Of a stretch of 64,000 nt of DNA, positions 2 through 50,249 are shown one piece after another (within the stretch, counting starts at the first letter, position 1; each line of letters starts with the position of its first letter). The notes beneath the pieces were generated by a model. It was given only the letters and a program-made list of their open reading frames with translations. It did not search any database and was not told where the DNA came from. Made by a program: the position numbers and the translations under genes. Source of the stretch: Candidatus Enterousia sp. (lineage in GTDB: Bacteria > Pseudomonadota > Alphaproteobacteria > Rs-D84); the NCBI GenBank assembly GCA_045593685.1, contig JAZNXD010000018.1, forward strand, positions 41,247 through 105,246, written 5' to 3'.

Positions 2-1441
2 CTGGTAAACTATTACCCATTATTCTTATTGTTTGGTGCAACACGTGAAGAATTACAAAAACACATTGATGAATTTAAAAAGATATCTGCTTCATTTGGT
101 ATATCCCCGATTGTTGAAACCTTTGCATCCAAGGTTTCCTGGTTTGCACAAATCCCCGGATTTGATGTATTTCCACGCAGTTTTAAATTACTATCACGTA
201 CGGCGGCCATTTCAATCCCGCTGTCGACCCAGCCACGTGGTGTTGCAAATTCAGACTGGGGTCCGGGTCCATTGGTTGTATTTCCAACGGCCCAGGGCAC
301 ACCATATCAATTTCAATTTCACGTATCTGACAAACCGGCGGCGGTTGGTCATACTATGACTATCGGTCCGACCGGTGGTGGTAAGACAACACTATTTTCG
401 TTCTTGATTGCGCAATCCCTGCGTCACCCGAAATTAAAGGCGTTTTTCTTTGACCGTAACAAAGGCGCGGAAATATTTACCATGGCGGTTGGTGGAAAAT
501 ACATCACCATGCAGGGCAAAGAAAAAAACACCGACCCAATGGCACAAAGTTTTATGACACGTCTAAATCCATTAAAGATGCCGGACACGGCGGCAAATCG
601 TGCTTTTTTACGTCGCTGGTTTGCGATAATATCGGGGCAATCCGATGCAAATTCGGCCGACGAAATTGCCCGTGCTGTATCTGTTAATTTTGATTATTTA
701 TCTGATCAGGACCGGTTGTTAAAGAATCTGTGGGAAAGTTGTTTTTCATCCAATGGTAACATGCGCCCTGCCCTTAAAAAGTGGATTGATCCATTACAAT
801 ATGGTGATATGTTCAACGAAGCATCCGATACACTGGATTTGCACTCGCGCCTGACCACTTTTGATTTTACCGATATATTACAGGACGAAACCCTGGCGCC
901 GGCGGTTATATCATATATATTACACCGAATTAATAATATAACAGTATCTGGTGGTAATCCTTCTTTGATTATGATAGACGAAACGGCACCTATGTTGGAA
1001 AACAAAATGTTCCGTGACAATTTTATTGCCGGTCTTCAAGAAGGACGCAAAAATCGCCAGGCCTATATGGTTGCGTTCCAACGTGCAAATGTATTGGATA
1101 AACTGGGCATAGGTGACGTTGTCCGTGGCCAGGCCCAAACGGTCATGTTCTTCCGTAATCCTGCGGCCGACAGCAATGACTATGCACATTGGAATTTAAA
1201 TCCGCTTGAAATGGCCTTTATCCAGGGACGTGCCTATCCGAATTTAAAACGTGCGGTATTATTGTCACGTCCGGTAAATGGGGAATCGGTTATATTAAAT
1301 ACGGAACTTGGTGGATTGGGCAATATGTTGCGCTTGTTTGAATCGGGGCGTTCATCTGTATTATTGGCCGAAGAATTATACAAAATGTATGGCAATAACT
1401 TTGTTGGCGAATATCTAAAACGCCAGGGTGCCCTGGATTAA
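2..1441 (+). CDS. virB4: Type IV secretion/conjugal-transfer ATPase VirB4/TrbE family, 5'-truncated by window start
   Basis: The reading frame is open from position 2, so the gene continues upstream of the window. Walker A motif GPTGGGKTT. The C-terminal region matches the VirB4 ATPase architecture. Confidence 0.8.
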   Translation: MVNYYPLFLLFGATREELQKHIDEFKKISASFGISPIVETFASKVSWFAQIPGFDVFPRSFKLLSRTAAISIPLSTQPRGVANSDWGPGPLVVFPTAQGTPYQFQFHVSDKPAAVGHTMTIGPTGGGKTTLFSFLIAQSLRHPKLKAFFFDRNKGAEIFTMAVGGKYITMQGKEKNTDPMAQSFMTRLNPLKMPDTAANRAFLRRWFAIISGQSDANSADEIARAVSVNFDYLSDQDRLLKNLWESCFSSNGNMRPALKKWIDPLQYGDMFNEASDTLDLHSRLTTFDFTDILQDETLAPAVISYILHRINNITVSGGNPSLIMIDETAPMLENKMFRDNFIAGLQEGRKNRQAYMVAFQRANVLDKLGIGDVVRGQAQTVMFFRNPAADSNDYAHWNLNPLEMAFIQGRAYPNLKRAVLLSRPVNGESVILNTELGGLGNMLRLFESGRSSVLLAEELYKMYGNNFVGEYLKRQGALD

Positions 1442-43601: not shown

Positions 43602-45214
43602 TTCAGATTCCTTATTTTTCTTTCAATATATGGGACAACCGTTAATCCATCATCAGATAAATCAATCGCACGATTGTATGCTTCTATGGCCTTGTCAACA
43701 TCGCCCTTGGCTGCATACATGTCCCCCAGGTTAACAAATAACGAAGAACATGTTTCTGATATTTCGCCAACACGTTCCAGTAATTCCAGCGCCGCGTCCA
43801 CACCTTCGCGTGCCGCCACCACAACCCCCAGCGTATCCCATGCCAGGACATCTGTTGGGTTTTGCCGAACCAGCCCCATCGCATAATCATACGCGTTTTC
43901 CAGTTCGCGATTTCGCGCAGCCCAAATCTTGGCCTGTAACGAAATGATTTCACTATCAACCATTTGTATTTCTGATGCCTGTCTAATATCGTCTTGTGCG
44001 GCCTTGTAATCGCCAAAGGCAAAGTATATTTGTGCCCTGCTCTTAATAAAAAAAGCCCGGGCCTCATCTCCCAAATTTTTATCGCGCAAAGCACGATTGA
44101 CCGCACGCAATGCGGTGCGTTTATTTCCATTTTGGATATTGTACGCAATCATTTTATTTACAGCCGGCACAAACAGCGGATGCTCTTCTATCAAATCCCC
44201 CAGTGCATCAATATCTTGGTTCTTTTCAATCATGCGCAAACGTGCAAAGGGATAAAATGGACTGTCTTGCTTTATTTTTTCAAAATGTTTTTGATAGTTT
44301 CCGACATTGGTATAAAAATACTGGCCCAAATAGTAATCGATTGTATTATTATTGTATGCAAAATCTGGCGCAATAATTTGTGCAAAACGTAACAACAGCA
44401 TTGCCAAATCTGAATACATCATGATCTGTGTGTGCGACACGTTTTGAACCAAACTGAACGCCAGTTGATTTTCATATCCTTCGTATATTGACCAATCCGG
44501 AATATTTTTATAATTCGCCATAAACATCCCGCCGGGAAGCGACGAGAATTCGGCACGCAAAGCATCCGCACGATCCTGCATATCATGATGTGTATAGAAC
44601 GACATAACATACATATAATCGTTCAGGTTCATAAATTCTGTTTCAACCTTGGCAAAGTGGTCGGCGGCGGTATCTATATCGCCCAGTTGTGCATAAATTT
44701 GACCACGCACAAACGATTTCCAAGATTGGTTTGTTGGCAGTTTGTCGATAAACTTAAACGTGTTCGTACGCCAATCATTTGCGATTGCGGACCAAATACG
44801 CAAGGGGGCGGCCAACGCAGATTCATCTGTCTTGTGACGATTGTGAAAATCCTTCCATTTATTATTTTTTATCAGGTGCGCGTCATAAATTAAACGCGCA
44901 GGCATACTCTTTTCGTTTTTCAACAGATGTGCATCAAATGGCATCCGTCCCGATAAAAAGTCCGCCAAATAAACGGTGTTCTGGACGGCCGGATATTGTA
45001 CATCCCCCAGGTTCTGTGTAAATTTTTTTGCAGAATCAAAATCGTTAACATACACAGCGTGCTGGGCCGCCAAAAAAGACGCATATTTTGTTTCTGGAAA
45101 ACTGTACGTGTCCTGATTGGATTGTGATTTTGTGTAATTCCATATTGCGCCACCTGTAATAACAACGACGGCCAATAAACTAACTGTAATAAAAATGCTT
45201 TCTATTTTCTTCAT
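43598..45214 (-). CDS. Membrane-anchored TPR-repeat protein
   Basis: N-terminal transmembrane segment. Multiple TPR-like helices (e.g. AYNRAIDLSDDG). Confidence 0.6.
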   Translation of the reverse strand: MKKIESIFITVSLLAVVVITGGAIWNYTKSQSNQDTYSFPETKYASFLAAQHAVYVNDFDSAKKFTQNLGDVQYPAVQNTVYLADFLSGRMPFDAHLLKNEKSMPARLIYDAHLIKNNKWKDFHNRHKTDESALAAPLRIWSAIANDWRTNTFKFIDKLPTNQSWKSFVRGQIYAQLGDIDTAADHFAKVETEFMNLNDYMYVMSFYTHHDMQDRADALRAEFSSLPGGMFMANYKNIPDWSIYEGYENQLAFSLVQNVSHTQIMMYSDLAMLLLRFAQIIAPDFAYNNNTIDYYLGQYFYTNVGNYQKHFEKIKQDSPFYPFARLRMIEKNQDIDALGDLIEEHPLFVPAVNKMIAYNIQNGNKRTALRAVNRALRDKNLGDEARAFFIKSRAQIYFAFGDYKAAQDDIRQASEIQMVDSEIISLQAKIWAARNRELENAYDYAMGLVRQNPTDVLAWDTLGVVVAAREGVDAALELLERVGEISETCSSLFVNLGDMYAAKGDVDKAIEAYNRAIDLSDDGLTVVPYIERKIRNLK

Positions 45215-45235
45215 GGCTATGCTAGAATAGCGCTT

Positions 45236-45796
45236 ATGAAGAATAATGTCAAATTTGATAAATACGAAGAAATGTTACGCGAATGGTCTGTGCGTATGAA
45301 TTTGGTCGCCCCCAGTACGCTGAACGATATTAAAACACGTCACATTGCTGATTCGGCGCAGTTGGCGGATGTTTTGCCGACCGGTGTGTCAATCGTTGAT
45401 TTGGGCAGTGGCGCCGGTTTTCCGGGAATTGTTTTGGCAATTTTGGGTTGGCGTGTAACGTGTGTTGAATCAATCGGGAAAAAGGTTGCTTTTTTAACGG
45501 CTGTCAAAGAAGCGCTTGGGCTGGATAATTTGACCATATATCACGGTCGTGTTGAAAATTTTGTCCGGGATTTGCCGGCAAAAAACGATAATATTGTATT
45601 TACTGCGCGTGCATTTGCGTCATTAGAGAAAATAATGGATTATGTTGCACGTACGAAATGCCGGCTTTTTCTATTAAAAGGCCGGGAAATAGAATCTGAA
45701 ATTAATGTTGCAAAACGGCGTTATCGTTTTTCTTATGATTTAACGCCATCGTGCACCGGGGATGGTTTTATAATTTCTGTGCGTTTTGACCGGTAA
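45236..45796 (+). CDS. rsmG: 16S rRNA m7G527 methyltransferase RsmG (GidB)
   Basis: SAM motif VDLGSGAGFPGIVLAI. 186 aa. Confidence 0.85.
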   Translation: MKNNVKFDKYEEMLREWSVRMNLVAPSTLNDIKTRHIADSAQLADVLPTGVSIVDLGSGAGFPGIVLAILGWRVTCVESIGKKVAFLTAVKEALGLDNLTIYHGRVENFVRDLPAKNDNIVFTARAFASLEKIMDYVARTKCRLFLLKGREIESEINVAKRRYRFSYDLTPSCTGDGFIISVRFDR

Positions 45797-45810
45797 TTTC
45801 ATGTGAAACA
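45795..45810. promoter_or_regulatory. parS-like site (13/16 to TGTTTCACGTGAAACA)
   Basis: aaTTTCAtGTGAAACA immediately after the rsmG stop. Shares a 12-mer TTTCATGTGAAA with the site at 46778-46793. Confidence 0.4.
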
Positions 45811-45828
45811 GGTTTTAACATGATGATT

Positions 45829-46731
45829 TTAGCGCGTTTTGTATCTTTTTAACAAGATGCTGTTTTGGCCGGTTGTTTTGTATATAATGCTGTCGATTTT
45901 TTGCATCATTTCTTGCTTCTGCTTTTTTGTGGCCAATTCCCACAGATTTATTGTGCCATATTTTGTTTCGAAATCCCACAGTGGTGCCCACATGTTTACT
46001 TGTGGTATGAACATTGCTTTGTTGATTTTTGCGCATTCTAGGTTGGGTTTATATGTGTTTTTTTGATTATAAAAGTATGCTTTGCGCAACCCATGTATAT
46101 ATGTTCCGTCGGCGGTTTGATTGACGTAACGCTGTGTGGCGTGTTTCATGATTATGTCCGCAACCTGTTGTGTATAAAAGTAGGGTGATATATTATTTGG
46201 TTTGCATTGGTCGTTTATTTCGGTCAATGCGTTTTTTATAAATTTTCTGCCCGGTTTTTCTGTTTGTGTTTCATGGTGTTGCGCCTCGATTGCTTCGACG
46301 ATTTCGCCGGCTGGTGCCATCACTTCATTAAGTGCCGCAACGCGTGCACGTGTCATGGGTGGCAGGTGTTCGGTATGTTTTGTTAGAGCGGCTTTGCGTG
46401 CATGTTCATATTCGTGTCGCAGAACGTATCGTTTTGATGTGTTGTTAAGGTGGCATATTCTTTCAAGTTGTTCGTTCGGTGTTTTTGGAATAAAATAATA
46501 TGTAATAATTGTGTTTGTGGCGGGAATGAATCGTCCGGCGGCGCACTTGGTTATTTTTGTTTCTGGTGTTACGTACACTGTGTCGGTAATGTATTTCAGG
46601 GGGCGTAATTGTGTTTTACCGGTGTTTGCCGGTTTTTTTGAATTATTTTCTTGTGTTGTTTGTGCGGCGATAATCGAAGTTACGCCCAGGATAAAAGATA
46701 CAGAAAGATGTGCCAAATATCGAAAATTCAT
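45829..46731 (-). CDS. Secreted hypothetical protein with HExxH motif (possible Zn-metallopeptidase-like), inserted between rsmG and parA
   Basis: Signal peptide MNFRYLAHLSVSFILGVTSIIAAQT. RHEYEH motif. The ATG at 46731 sits 5-7 nt after a TATATA -10. The longer open reading frame starting at 46785 would bury the promoter. Confidence 0.5.
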   Translation of the reverse strand: MNFRYLAHLSVSFILGVTSIIAAQTTQENNSKKPANTGKTQLRPLKYITDTVYVTPETKITKCAAGRFIPATNTIITYYFIPKTPNEQLERICHLNNTSKRYVLRHEYEHARKAALTKHTEHLPPMTRARVAALNEVMAPAGEIVEAIEAQHHETQTEKPGRKFIKNALTEINDQCKPNNISPYFYTQQVADIIMKHATQRYVNQTADGTYIHGLRKAYFYNQKNTYKPNLECAKINKAMFIPQVNMWAPLWDFETKYGTINLWELATKKQKQEMMQKIDSIIYKTTGQNSILLKRYKTR

Positions 46732-46736
46732 ACTTT

Positions 46737-46766
46737 TATATATAGCACAAAATAACCGTTTGTCAA
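46737..46766 (-). promoter_or_regulatory. Promoter box TTGACAAA...TTTTGTGCTATAT placed for a leaderless transcript
   Basis: -35 TTGACA (complement of 46761-46766), a 16-18 nt spacer, and -10 TATATA 5-7 nt before the ATG. 21 of 26 bases match the box at 49741-49766. Confidence 0.5.
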
Positions 46767-46777
46767 TATTGGTTTTG

Positions 46778-46793
46778 TGTTTCATGTGAAATT
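46778..46793. promoter_or_regulatory. parS-like site (13/16 to consensus)
   Basis: TGTTTCAtGTGAAAtt, 110 nt upstream of parA. Confidence 0.4.
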
Positions 46794-46902
46794 GCGGGTA
46801 ATATATTGATTTTTAATTGTTTTTTGTGTTGGTTGATATATTGTCTTGACCGAATCGGCTGCTTTTTATAAGGTAAACTACATAATTATATGGAAAGGGA
46901 AT

Positions 46903-47685
46903 ATGGCTTATATCATAGCATTTGCAAATCAAAAGGGTGGTGTTGGAAAAACAACAACCGCCATTAATATCGGCGCATCGTTGGCAACGATTGGTCAGCG
47001 TGTTTTGTTAATAGACCTGGATCAACAGGGTAATGCCGGCACGGGTTTGGGCTTTGAACGCGGTGCACATGAACAAAACGTGTATGACGTTATAATGGGG
47101 GTATCGCCCATTGCAAATAATATTTTAAGTACGGCCGTGCCCGGCTTGCATCTTTTACCGTCCAGCCAGGCTCTTGCCGGTGCGGATATTGATTTATTGG
47201 ATGTTGAAAATCGCGAATATAAATTGCGTGACGCCTTGGTGCCGATAATGGATTATTACGATTTTATTTTGTTGGATTGTCCGCCGGCTTTGGGTTTTTT
47301 AACCATCAACGCATTAACGGCATCTGATTCTGTCATAATACCGTTACAGTGCGAATTTTTTGCCCTAGAAGGGGTGCAGCAATTAATGGATACTATAACA
47401 ATAGTGCGTGAAAACTGGAATCCTGGATTGGAAATTCTGGGGGTTTTGTTGACGATGTATGACAAACGTTATGGTCTGACACGTGCGGTTGATGATGATG
47501 TTCGAAAAACGTTTGGTGATACGGTTTTCAAAACGGTTGTGCCGCGCAATGTTCGCGTATCCGAAGCGCCCAGCCACGGCAAGCCGGCGCTGTTTTATGA
47601 CTTTAATTCAACCGGCGCCCAGGCATATTTGCGTGTCGCGACCGAGGTGGTAGAAAGAACCATAGGGGGCACAGATGGCAAATAA
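46903..47685 (+). CDS. parA: Chromosome partitioning ATPase ParA
   Basis: Deviant Walker A KGGVGKTTT. AAGGGA ribosome-binding site before the ATG at 46903. Confidence 0.9.
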   Translation: MAYIIAFANQKGGVGKTTTAINIGASLATIGQRVLLIDLDQQGNAGTGLGFERGAHEQNVYDVIMGVSPIANNILSTAVPGLHLLPSSQALAGADIDLLDVENREYKLRDALVPIMDYYDFILLDCPPALGFLTINALTASDSVIIPLQCEFFALEGVQQLMDTITIVRENWNPGLEILGVLLTMYDKRYGLTRAVDDDVRKTFGDTVFKTVVPRNVRVSEAPSHGKPALFYDFNSTGAQAYLRVATEVVERTIGGTDGK

Positions 47686-48553
47686 ATTTGGATTGGGGCG
47701 TGGTTTGGCGGATTTGCAAAATGCGCGTGGCGCGATACCGAATATTTCTTTGTTAACACCGACCGACAGGGTTGTTGTAAAGCAGGTCCCGTTGTCGCAA
47801 ATTGCTGCAAATCCCGATCAGCCACGTAAAACTTTTACCGAAGGTGAATTGGCCGACCTGGCTGCATCTATTCGTGAAAAGGGCGTGTTACAGCCTATTT
47901 TGTTGCGTGCTGTTACCGGTCGTCCATATATGTATGAAATAGTTGCGGGTGAACGTCGTTTTCGTGCATCCAAAATGGCGGGCAAAACCGAAATACCCGC
48001 GTTGGTAAAAACATTAACGGATGAAAACGCGCGCGAAATTGCATTAATAGAAAATGTTCAGCGTGAAAATCTTAACCCTATGGAAGAGGCTGCTGCCTAT
48101 AAAAACCTGATGGAGTGTTGTGATTATGAATTGGCGGATGTTGCGCGCCTGATTGGCAAATCAGACAGTTATATTCGTAACATGTTGCGATTAACTTCGT
48201 TGCCCGAATCTGTGCAACATTTGGTAGAGCAGGGCGAATTATCCGCATCCCATGCGCGTACGATTGCGGTTGCCGAAAATCCCGAAGATTTGGCGCATAA
48301 AATTATATCTCAAAAATTATCGGTATCGGATACGGACAGGTTGGTAAAATCCGCGCCCCGCGCCAAAACATGCCGTAATCATAAAAACAAGAACATTGAT
48401 GATGCGCAAATTCGTGATATGGAAAACAAAATAAAGGGCGCCCTGGGGGTGGGGGTAAAAATAACCGAGCGTCGCGGTGGCGCGGGACAGGTAACATTAT
48501 CGTTTGTTTCCCGTCCCCAGTTATTCGAATTGGTTGAAAGACTGACCAAATAA
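47675..48553 (+). CDS. parB: Chromosome partitioning protein ParB
   Basis: ParB box GERRFRA. HTH. Overlaps the parA end. Confidence 0.9.
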   Translation: MANKFGLGRGLADLQNARGAIPNISLLTPTDRVVVKQVPLSQIAANPDQPRKTFTEGELADLAASIREKGVLQPILLRAVTGRPYMYEIVAGERRFRASKMAGKTEIPALVKTLTDENAREIALIENVQRENLNPMEEAAAYKNLMECCDYELADVARLIGKSDSYIRNMLRLTSLPESVQHLVEQGELSASHARTIAVAENPEDLAHKIISQKLSVSDTDRLVKSAPRAKTCRNHKNKNIDDAQIRDMENKIKGALGVGVKITERRGGAGQVTLSFVSRPQLFELVERLTK

Positions 48554-48555
48554 AA

Positions 48556-48650
48556 ATGTTCAAAAAAGCCGGCAAATGCCGGCGATTTTTATTAAAATTA
48601 AAATCAAATAAATTTGTTAAAAAATACCGGCATTTGCCGGCTTTTTTATC
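48556..48650. terminator. Two tandem bidirectional terminators (GCCGGCaaatGCCGGC and CCGGCatttGCCGG)
   Basis: Perfect palindromes flanked by A and T tracts, between the convergent parB and radical-SAM genes. Confidence 0.65.
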
Positions 48651-49731
48651 GTTTTTTTGATTTAAACAGATTTAAAACGGTGTTCATATCTTTTTTTATA
48701 CTTTGCGCGACCCGGCGATTTGTTTCGTTAAAAACCCAGCGTTCTTCTTCGATGGCGGTTTGTTTTTCCAAATCGCGTTTTATATTATTCAAAGGTCGTG
48801 GCGTGCCATCTTTGTTGCGCCATGGCACGGTTATCTTCTTGCCCGAATTTTCGCCCAGTGTAACATTGCCAAAGGAATCAAATGCCATCAGAACCTGCGG
48901 CGGATTCCCCGGGGCCAGGAAACTAAACTGTGGCGTTGGTGTATGGTATGCGTTTTCAATATTTTTTGCGCGCCCACCATCAAACAATGTACCGATTGAA
49001 AATCTTAAAATAATATTCCCGTTTACGGACCACATATTGTTTTGTGGGGCAGGGGACATATCATTGTTTGTGCCACCAAAAACGCTAATTGGGTGTACGT
49101 CGTTGTTTTGTTTACGCAATTTGCCCAGCATTTCATCAATCATATCCACATCTTGCCCAAAAGATGAAATATTGATGACACAGGTGCTGTTTTTTTGTCT
49201 GCGTGACATTTCGGTAATGAATTCAATATTTTTCTGCATTGCGTGCGGATGGAATCTGTCCAGTGACAATGATACCTGCATTGGAATTAATCTAAAACTG
49301 CTGATGCTGTGTGCGCTTAATACATCGACCATGTCATCAAAAATCATATCGCGCATGGGGGTAAGTGTCCAGCCCGCATTTGTTTTTATATCAACGCTGC
49401 AACCATTATTCAGTGCTAAATTCAGCAAATTTTTCACATAATTTGGTTCGTTATGGTATTTGTAGGCGCTCATAATTTCGCCGCCTGTAAATACTAAATC
49501 CTTGCTAAATTTTGGATCATTTATGGCTTGCTTGATATAATTTTCTATTATTGCCGACGGAATATAGTTTTTAGGCATATTTGCGCCGGCCGATTCACAA
49601 CAGTGTGGGCAATTATTCCAACAGTAATGCGTGGTTTTAAAAATCATTACATACGGCAGTTTTCGTATTGCCTGTGCCGCGGATGAATTACGACATAACA
49701 TCGAATGAAAAAAATCATGTATCCTTAACAT
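48646..49731 (-). CDS. Radical SAM domain protein, function unknown (361 aa)
   Basis: CWNNCPHC is a CxxxCxxC motif. FTGGE is a glycine-rich SAM motif. No SPASM-type C-terminal Cys cluster is evident. Confidence 0.7.
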   Translation of the reverse strand: MLRIHDFFHSMLCRNSSAAQAIRKLPYVMIFKTTHYCWNNCPHCCESAGANMPKNYIPSAIIENYIKQAINDPKFSKDLVFTGGEIMSAYKYHNEPNYVKNLLNLALNNGCSVDIKTNAGWTLTPMRDMIFDDMVDVLSAHSISSFRLIPMQVSLSLDRFHPHAMQKNIEFITEMSRRQKNSTCVINISSFGQDVDMIDEMLGKLRKQNNDVHPISVFGGTNNDMSPAPQNNMWSVNGNIILRFSIGTLFDGGRAKNIENAYHTPTPQFSFLAPGNPPQVLMAFDSFGNVTLGENSGKKITVPWRNKDGTPRPLNNIKRDLEKQTAIEEERWVFNETNRRVAQSIKKDMNTVLNLFKSKKR

Positions 49732-49736
49732 GAAAT

Positions 49737-49766
49737 ATAATATAGCACAAAATATTACTTTGTCAA
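49737..49766 (-). promoter_or_regulatory. Promoter box TTGACAAA...TTTTGTGCTATAT placed for a leaderless transcript of the radical-SAM gene
   Basis: -35 TTGACA (complement of 49761-49766), a 16-nt spacer, and -10 TATATT ending 7 nt before the ATG at 49731. Confidence 0.5.
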
Positions 49767-49785: not shown

Positions 49786-49816
49786 ATAAAAAAACCGCCC
49801 GATTGGGCGGCTTTTG
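49786..49816. terminator. Bidirectional terminator CCGCCCgattGGGCGG
   Basis: 6-bp GC stem flanked by A7 and T4. Confidence 0.6.
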
Positions 49817-49829
49817 AAACTTTCAACAA

Positions 49830-50249
49830 TTATTTAACTGTTGTTGTGGCGTTACGGTTCCATTTCCAAACTTCTTCACCGGAACCTTTAACCAATGGGC
49901 GTTCTTTACCATAAGAGATAGTAGAGATACGTTTTGCATCAATACCATCGTTTACGATAACGTTTTTCGCCGCATTTGCACGACGTGCGCCCAGGGCTAA
50001 GTTGTATTCTGTTGAACCACGTTCGTCACAGTTACCTGCGATTTGGATTTTCACATCTTCGTGGTTTTTCATATACAAAGCCTGACCCAACAGGTTGTTT
50101 TTTGCATCTTCGCTGATTTCAGAAGAATTGAAACCAAAGAATACGCGCTGATCGTTCAAATCTGCCGGTTCTACAATTTTAGAAGAGCCGCCACACGCTG
50201 CCAACAGGCCAGCTACGCCCGCCAACAAAGCAAAGTTTTTAATTTTCAT
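49830..50249 (-). CDS. pal: Peptidoglycan-associated lipoprotein Pal (OmpA-like)
   Basis: Lipobox LLAACGGS. OmpA C-terminal motif NLALGARRANAAKN. Confidence 0.85.
   Translation of the reverse strand: MKIKNFALLAGVAGLLAACGGSSKIVEPADLNDQRVFFGFNSSEISEDAKNNLLGQALYMKNHEDVKIQIAGNCDERGSTEYNLALGARRANAAKNVIVNDGIDAKRISTISYGKERPLVKGSGEEVWKWNRNATTTVK

Follow-up and report, generated by a model that had tools for sequence, protein, structure and literature searches.

In silico, bacterial leaderless genes are recognized by a -10-like signal, TANNNT, that precedes the start codon by about 10-12 bp (PMC3160421). Among Alphaproteobacteria, Caulobacter has 375 leaderless mRNAs and S. meliloti has 171, and initiation on leadered mRNAs that have no Shine-Dalgarno (SD) sequence is also common in the class (PMC4117421). 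For leaderless translation, the AUG must lie at the very 5' end of the message, accessible and free of added leader sequence, and the identity of the start codon matters (PMC8459731). Here we analyze a 64-kb stretch of DNA (the window, ~43% GC) in which two minus-strand genes are preceded by nearly the same promoter box, a likeness first pointed out in a sequence-only reading. We find it likely that both boxes are near-consensus sigma-70 promoters that abut the ATG and yield leaderless mRNAs, and that they resemble each other because they share an optimum, with no dedicated regulator behind the resemblance.

The two genes lie on either side of parA (46903-47685, plus strand) and parB (47675-48553, plus strand). 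One of them (45829-46731, minus strand) encodes a 300-aa protein with an HExxH motif and a signal-peptide-like N-terminus; the other (48646-49731, minus strand) encodes a 361-aa radical-SAM protein with CxxxCxxC at residues 37-44. Next to the HExxH gene are gidB (45236-45796, plus strand) and a TPR gene (start at 45214, minus strand), and an OmpA/Pal-family gene (49830-50249, minus strand) precedes the radical-SAM gene. The MAGs that supply homologues of the window's proteins bear the label Alphaproteobacteria or Pseudomonadota and derive largely from gut or rumen samples; exact-sequence look-ups of the window proteins matched no record. The radical-SAM protein scores 26 bits against Pfam Radical_SAM, below the cut-off, and has weak YydG-like matches in NCBIfam; its nearest PDB sequence is YydG (E 3.6e-6), and its 197 homologues are mostly from Alphaproteobacteria MAGs.

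Read on the minus strand, box A, the promoter of the HExxH gene (46739..46766), runs TTGACAAACGGTTATTTTGTGCTATAT from 46766 to 46740, and box B, that of the radical-SAM gene (49739..49766), runs TTGACAAAGTAATATTTTGTGCTATAT from 49766 to 49740. Their common skeleton is TTGACAAA-N5-ATTTTGTGCTATAT, with 22/22 skeleton bases and 23/27 bases overall identical, and a repeat finder pairs them at 85% identity over 27 nt (family D10). The likeness was earlier counted as 21/26 over a 26-mer; the likeness holds, and a recount gives 22/26. In both boxes a -35 TTGACA (46761-46766 in A, 49761-49766 in B) is followed by a 16-nt spacer (46745-46760 in A) that ends in TGTGC (TGTG at 46746-46749 and 49746-49749), directly before the -10 hexamer, TATATA at 46739-46744 in A and TATATT at 49739-49744 in B. 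A 7-nt discriminator, TAAAAGT (46732-46738) or ATATTTC (49732-49738), then leads to the ATG (46729-46731 and 49729-49731), whose A is thus the 8th base after the -10 in both. The consensus -35, a spacer of 16-18 nt and the closeness of the -10 to the ATG (put at 5-7 nt) had all been recognized in the sequence-only reading; the TATATT it gave for the -10 is right for box B and wrong for box A.

This one letter separates the two boxes in a scan for consensus promoters. Box B matches the consensus at 11/12 positions (5/6 in the -10) and has the TG in addition, and it was the top promoter between 45000 and 50400. Box A was not listed, because its hexamer has A at position 6 and not the usual T; with the -10 imperfect, this promoter depends for its strength on the -35 and TGn. 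When the skeleton was searched for in the window with up to 3 mismatches, boxes A and B were the two matches, with 0 expected from 100 shuffles, and at this threshold the 64 kb contain no third copy. The accB promoter in the window is built on the same skeleton, in the form TTGACAATGGGGGATAATGTGATACAAT; here a 43-nt leader containing an AAGGA SD separates promoter and gene.

Apart from the last -10 letter of box A, the elements of boxes A and B firmly support their identification as sigma-70-type (RpoD) promoters with an extended -10. To see how widely such a box occurs, we scanned one genome per species for TTGACAAA-N6-TTTTGTGYTAT and obtained at least 119 matches, in Clostridia, Anaerolineae, CPR, Planctomycetota, Spirochaetes and several Alphaproteobacteria MAGs. 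Among the matches listed, the pattern is completed by TATAAT in 52/119 and by TATNNT in 106/119, and many lie directly upstream of tRNA genes. As this 25-nt pattern recurs across many phyla, the box is a general optimum of the housekeeping RNA polymerase and not a lineage-specific site. When metagenomes were scanned with the ATG set 7 nt from the end of the -10, 27 scattered matches appeared, from diverse environments, so the design exists elsewhere. Compared by eye, the DnaA box, the CtrA box, a CRP/FNR-type half-site and a Bacteroidetes-type (-33/-7) promoter all misfit in letters or spacing.

By alignment with homologues, the ATGs at 46731 and 49731 are the true starts. Upstream of 49731 the radical-SAM reading frame contains no in-frame ATG, GTG or TTG, and 21 homologues align starting at the Met of 49731. 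At codon 11 the window's gene has a second in-frame ATG, but L003, L004 and most other homologues have a residue other than Met there. Many HExxH homologues align residue 1 to residue 1 with the 46731 start. A gene caller placed the start of this gene at an ATG at 46785 instead (P0121, 318 aa), in the center of a parS-like palindrome, TTTCACATGAAA. Because relatives without the HExxH gene carry this parS-like site too, we judge the 46785 ATG to be spurious.

Several homologues of both families have N-terminal extensions that are translated promoter, as in IDKCIFCDIYKN-M, LTNNVRCANIYL-M and VDNVFVCAMFLY-M. The calls extended upstream through the promoter are P0121, P0022, P0018, P0074, P0134, P0135, P0153 and P0157; their spurious N-terminal peptides translate TTGACAAA...TTTTGTG...TATA and take the form '..IDK.(I/L)FC.IY..'. 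A promoter lying directly against the true ATG would be expected to give rise to extensions of this kind. False N-termini from gene callers would have consequences, for example masking the signal peptide of the HExxH family.

We then compared the promoters across orthologues. The radical-SAM orthologues range in protein identity from 95% (L001/L002) through 77% (L003), 73% (L004), 61% (L156/L157), 54% (L153) and 47% (L152) to 42% (L154/L155). When eight orthologous loci are aligned on the Met, all have TTGACA-16/17 nt(..GTGn)-TAnnnT-6..8 nt-ATG in register. The TTGACA is perfect in all eight, as it is in boxes A and B, in strain L005, which keeps box A, and in two further loci treated below, L158 and L076; the GTGn is invariant across the orthologues. 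The spacer is 16 nt long in both boxes and in most orthologues; L003 has 17 nt. In the orthologues, the A of the ATG is the 7th to 9th base after the -10. Among the radical-SAM orthologues, neither the upstream flanks nor the early part of the spacer is conserved, whereas the core promoter elements are kept and the T-rich TTTTGTG of the spacer is present in most. Even in L154, where the radical-SAM gene has been relocated to a site between an ftsX-like gene and gpsA, it still carries the promoter.

The HExxH gene offers a more distant comparison. Its positional orthologue in L158 encodes a protein only 36% identical, next to a gidB that is 83% identical, and upstream of it are a parS-like site and TTGACA-16 nt ending TGTGC-TATGTT-7-ATG. 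Every promoter-to-ATG sequence compared (13/13) has ATG as its start codon, and so does L158. By these alignments, each gene family has conserved the promoter-ATG design as a fixed trait. The sequence-only reading would have counted absence of the box from orthologous promoters against itself; the layout is present in the eight radical-SAM loci and in L158. The in-silico mark of leaderless genes, a conserved TANNNT near the true start (PMC3160421), is likewise found in the orthologues of both genes, L158 included.

We wondered whether this layout is peculiar to the two genes or common in the window. On a crude, home-made gene map with 58 starts, an SD-like motif is present at 33/58, for example at parA (AAAGGGAAT-ATG) and pal (CAAGGGAGTATTTTC-ATG), whereas the ATGs at 46731 and 49731 have none, as had been claimed. 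The geometry TTG-N3-[16-18]-TANNNT-[5-9]-ATG occurs at 7/58 of these gene starts versus 15/2605 (0.6%) of other ATGs (binomial p 5e-8), an enrichment of ~20-fold, and promoter-to-ATG distances in the window cluster at 5-9 nt. Box A falls outside the strict geometry solely by the last letter of its -10. Among geometry-bearing genes, 7/8 are without an SD (Fisher p 0.016). Judged from this genome's sequence, the lineage appears to use two standard designs: the leaderless layout, and a leader that carries an SD.

Further candidate leaderless starts in the window lie at 2765 (minus), 12238 (minus), 16388 (plus), 57731 (minus) and 60243 (minus), with TTGnnn-16..18-TAnnnT, 6-9 nt to the ATG and mostly no SD. 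Some of the other candidates have alternative GTG or TTG starts a few codons upstream. In the divergent pair gidB and TPR, only 21 bp separate the two start codons (26 bp in L154). The gidB ATG is preceded, at a distance of 7 nt, by a conserved TGCTAGAAT, in an arrangement kept in L001, L003 and L004, and the TPR gene promoter, TTGACA-17-TATTCT-9-ATG, has its -35 within gidB codons. The two genes (45214-45236) thus have overlapping divergent promoters, which would probably give leaderless mRNAs.

For boxes A and B, we propose that RpoD holoenzyme would bind the -35, TGn and -10 elements and, because the -10 ends 7 nt before the ATG, would start transcription at the A of the ATG or 1-2 nt before it. 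The predicted +1 of box B is the A at 49731, the sole purine in the usual start window; for box A, transcription could also begin at a G that precedes the A at 46731 by two bases. The resulting mRNA would have neither a 5' UTR nor an SD, and its 5'-AUG would bind 70S ribosomes together with initiator tRNA directly, by the leaderless route. The promoters would be essentially constitutive in character. In the predicted 5' ends the first 10 nt are unpaired, with minimum free energies of -1.6 and -3.4 kcal/mol; z-scores are ~0 and control genes are alike. Leaderless mRNAs had earlier been predicted from the position of the promoters, and the register in orthologues together with the enrichment of the geometry now lends this prediction comparative support.

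The same genes could in principle be translated from leadered mRNAs, started further upstream or reached by read-through, or by SD-independent initiation on a leadered mRNA at a codon further downstream, and we regard this as unlikely. The gap between -10 and ATG stays at 6-8 nt amid diverged DNA, which is hard to explain unless the ATG is tied to the transcription start site. Read-through into the radical-SAM gene would have to pass the intrinsic terminator of the OmpA/Pal-family gene (GCCGCCCAATCGGGCGG and a T run, 49789..49815, minus strand; repeat family D1), which is kept in orthologues and ends 22 nt from the -35 of box B, so that box B is the only room for a radical-SAM promoter. Initiation downstream is made conceivable by the in-frame ATG at codon 11 of the window's radical-SAM gene and by the frequency of non-SD leadered initiation in Alphaproteobacteria (PMC4117421), but the codon 11 Met is unconserved and conservation of the protein begins at the first Met; the HExxH homologues, too, align from residue 1. 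The imperfect -10 of box A also counts in favor of the leadered reading.

The surroundings of box A differ between relatives. The HExxH family, of ~300 aa, has no Pfam or NCBIfam model; an exhaustive HMMER search assembled 60 representative clusters, in which H106, E107, H110, E136, E143 and Y211 are invariant (alignment A6). The motif is gluzincin-like, HExxH...E, and the N-terminus resembles a signal peptide or lipoprotein signal. An MSA-based AlphaFold (AF2) model of the protein has pLDDT 89.5 and pTM 0.83 (pLDDT 37 for a single-sequence model). Searched with Foldseek, this model gave nothing significant in the PDB, and BFVD returned weak hints only, of a possibly zincin-type likeness ('lethal factor', E 0.019). 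The dN/dS of 0.12 between the window and strain L005 indicates that the reading frame is a real gene. A view of this gene as an ORFan or recent strain-specific insertion, based on a word-indexed search with a single 95% relative, was overturned by the 60 clusters and the L158 orthologue.

By comparison of these loci, the HExxH family is fast-evolving and variably present. The gene is found in the window, in L005 and in L158 (67-1029) and is absent from L001-L004, all of them with a gidB 82-84% identical to that of the window. It is flanked, next to parAB, by two parS-like sites of the form TGTTTCA[CA/TG]TGAAATT, each matching canonical parS at 13/16 positions. One of them (TGTTTCATGTGAAATT, 13/16 to TGTTNCACGTGAAACA, 46778..46793) lies in the spacer between parA and the HExxH gene, 11 nt upstream of the box A -35, and occurs also in L158; the second (45795..45810) falls where the HExxH gene and gidB converge, between their 3' ends. 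The interval that the sites enclose is hypervariable: in L158 it holds a protein 36% identical, and in L001-L004 a bidirectional terminator stands in place of the gene, with the parS-like sites ~130 bp apart. ParB binding or spreading might affect box A, given the 11 nt that separate it from the palindrome.

Other features of this region deserve mention. The HExxH coding strand is oddly composed (A 41%, G 16%). Within its codons ~31-40, a hairpin, ACCGGTGTTTGCCGGT plus T7 (46618-46640, plus strand), has the look of an intrinsic terminator for transcription coming from the gidB side, and resembles both the spacer terminator of relatives without the HExxH gene and the regional terminators of repeat family D1. 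The methylation motif of CcrM in Alphaproteobacteria is GANTC, and a palindrome with GANTC, CCGAATCGG (46846-46860, plus strand), overlaps the probable -35 of parA, TTGACC. A block by the parA promoter, CGATTCGGTCAAG, is kept in L001, L003 and L004, and parA itself, which diverges from box A, has a good SD in a leader of ~30 nt. The radical-SAM proteins of the window and L001 share 95% identity and the GidB proteins, encoded ~3 kb away, 84%; this contrast suggests a recombination mosaic around parAB.

Beyond the two genes, a stretch closely resembling box A precedes an unrelated gene in L076 (2238-2283; SUUL01000002.1, Alphaproteobacteria bacterium SIG45), which encodes an HNH_5 endonuclease (389 aa) and adjoins metK. 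From promoter to ATG this stretch, TATTGACAAACGCATATTTTGTGCTATATATAATAGCATGAAT, is identical to box A at 40/44 positions, the ATG included, with dissimilar flanks; by a rough hand estimate, and given the number of matches, chance would produce such identity at ~1e-4. L152, the 47% radical-SAM orthologue, also carries TTGTGnTATATATAAnAnnATG. The likeness of box A and L076 exceeds what the search pattern alone leads one to expect.

One could explain this by copying of box A from a radical-SAM-type promoter, or by a leaderless module of ~44 bp that moves between unrelated, often accessory, genes, an explanation to which we give a small probability. The shared TTGTGnTATATATAAnAnnATG and the 40/44 identity speak for it, yet the similarity ends exactly at the promoter edges, adjacent repeats, target duplications and mobile-element genes are lacking there, and a BLAST of box A against phage genomes returned chance-level matches only. 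L158 has the same architecture in other letters (TATGTT and a different spacer), as expected for vertical descent under functional selection, and the AT-rich discriminators of strong promoters leave few letter options, which makes convergence plausible. We therefore prefer convergence on a narrow optimum and treat promoter copying as a low-probability account. In its specific form, a 'promoter plus ATG' module, TATTGACAAACG..TATTTTGTGCTATATATAAnAGnATGAA (~44 bp), would be exchanged among unrelated, often accessory, genes of gut Alphaproteobacteria; its candidate carriers are the variable HExxH gene, the HNH_5 gene of another MAG and a distant radical-SAM orthologue. Improbable as we hold such exchange to be, it would let new or hypervariable genes gain strong SD-independent expression in one step. 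A dispersed repeat or mobile element (REP, MITE or IS end) is not supported, as no similarity extends into the flanks: box A, box B and L076 share none there, and the A/B identity is confined to the 27-nt box.

The sequence-only reading had also predicted co-regulation of the two genes and had suggested a shared regulator site, partially inverted. A dedicated factor might indeed bind the box, or the dyad ACAAA-N7-TTTGT within it, since A and B have 9-11 positions in common outside the minimal -35 and -10 letters and the TTTTGTG of the spacer is kept in most orthologues. The dyad, however, consists of the -35 ACA and the extended -10 TGTG within an A/T-rich spacer, and the shared letters are those of a consensus promoter whose 25-nt pattern is widespread in unrelated phyla, among which no such factor can be shared. 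Of the 10 free positions of that pattern, A and B agree at 5, whereas random pairs of the matches listed average 4.2, and 41% of random pairs among the 119 listed are at least as similar as A and B. L153 has a broken dyad, L003 and L156 a weakened one, and the promoter elements persist in all three. Conservation stops at the core promoter, the 64 kb hold no further copy, and relatives that lack the HExxH gene retain box B. A shared operator is thus very improbable, and the predicted co-regulation is not supported.

The same holds for the spacing of the two genes, whose starts are exactly 3000 bp apart. The sequence-only reading had sought meaning in this distance. Because L001-L004 keep box B and lack the HExxH gene, the distance has no conserved counterpart in relatives, and we regard it as coincidence. 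Under our preferred reading, the boxes would be alike because both lie near the same optimum, and neither a dedicated regulator in common nor a recent common origin would be needed. For motif hunting this is a caution: two long, near-identical boxes in one genome can be mere copies of an RNA polymerase optimum.

Collectively, the two genes provide in-silico examples of leaderless design, conserved over deep divergence, in an uncultured gut or rumen lineage of Alphaproteobacteria without transcriptome maps, and they would extend knowledge of leaderless genes beyond Caulobacter and Sinorhizobium. Regulons of transcription factors with an operator box resemble the present case in having a long, near-identical motif with a partial dyad at two unlinked promoters; here, in contrast, RNA polymerase elements account for the whole motif, unrelated phyla have it too, and nothing further is conserved. 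The extended -10 (TGn), or '-16 TRTG', promoters of sigma-70 and sigma-A are a much closer match, as they share with boxes A and B the TTGACA, the 16-nt spacer and the TGTGn before TAnnnT; the only difference is the TATATA of box A, whose last letter is A where T is usual. TRTG is a hallmark of Gram-positive promoters. Like the leaderless genes of Actinobacteria, Deinococcus-Thermus, Caulobacter crescentus and Sinorhizobium meliloti, the two genes have TANNNT (TATATA in box A) 6-8 nt before the AUG and no SD, with conservation in orthologues and enrichment at gene starts. From sequence alone, they match the experimentally mapped leaderless cases (PMC4117421, PMC3898074) and the '-10 adjacent to ORF' pattern (PMC12340547). 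Their host differs from the leaderless reference organisms in being an uncultured alphaproteobacterium of ~43% GC with good SDs at many genes, and, unlike in the leaderless genes of those organisms, the -10 is accompanied here by a full consensus -35 and TGn.
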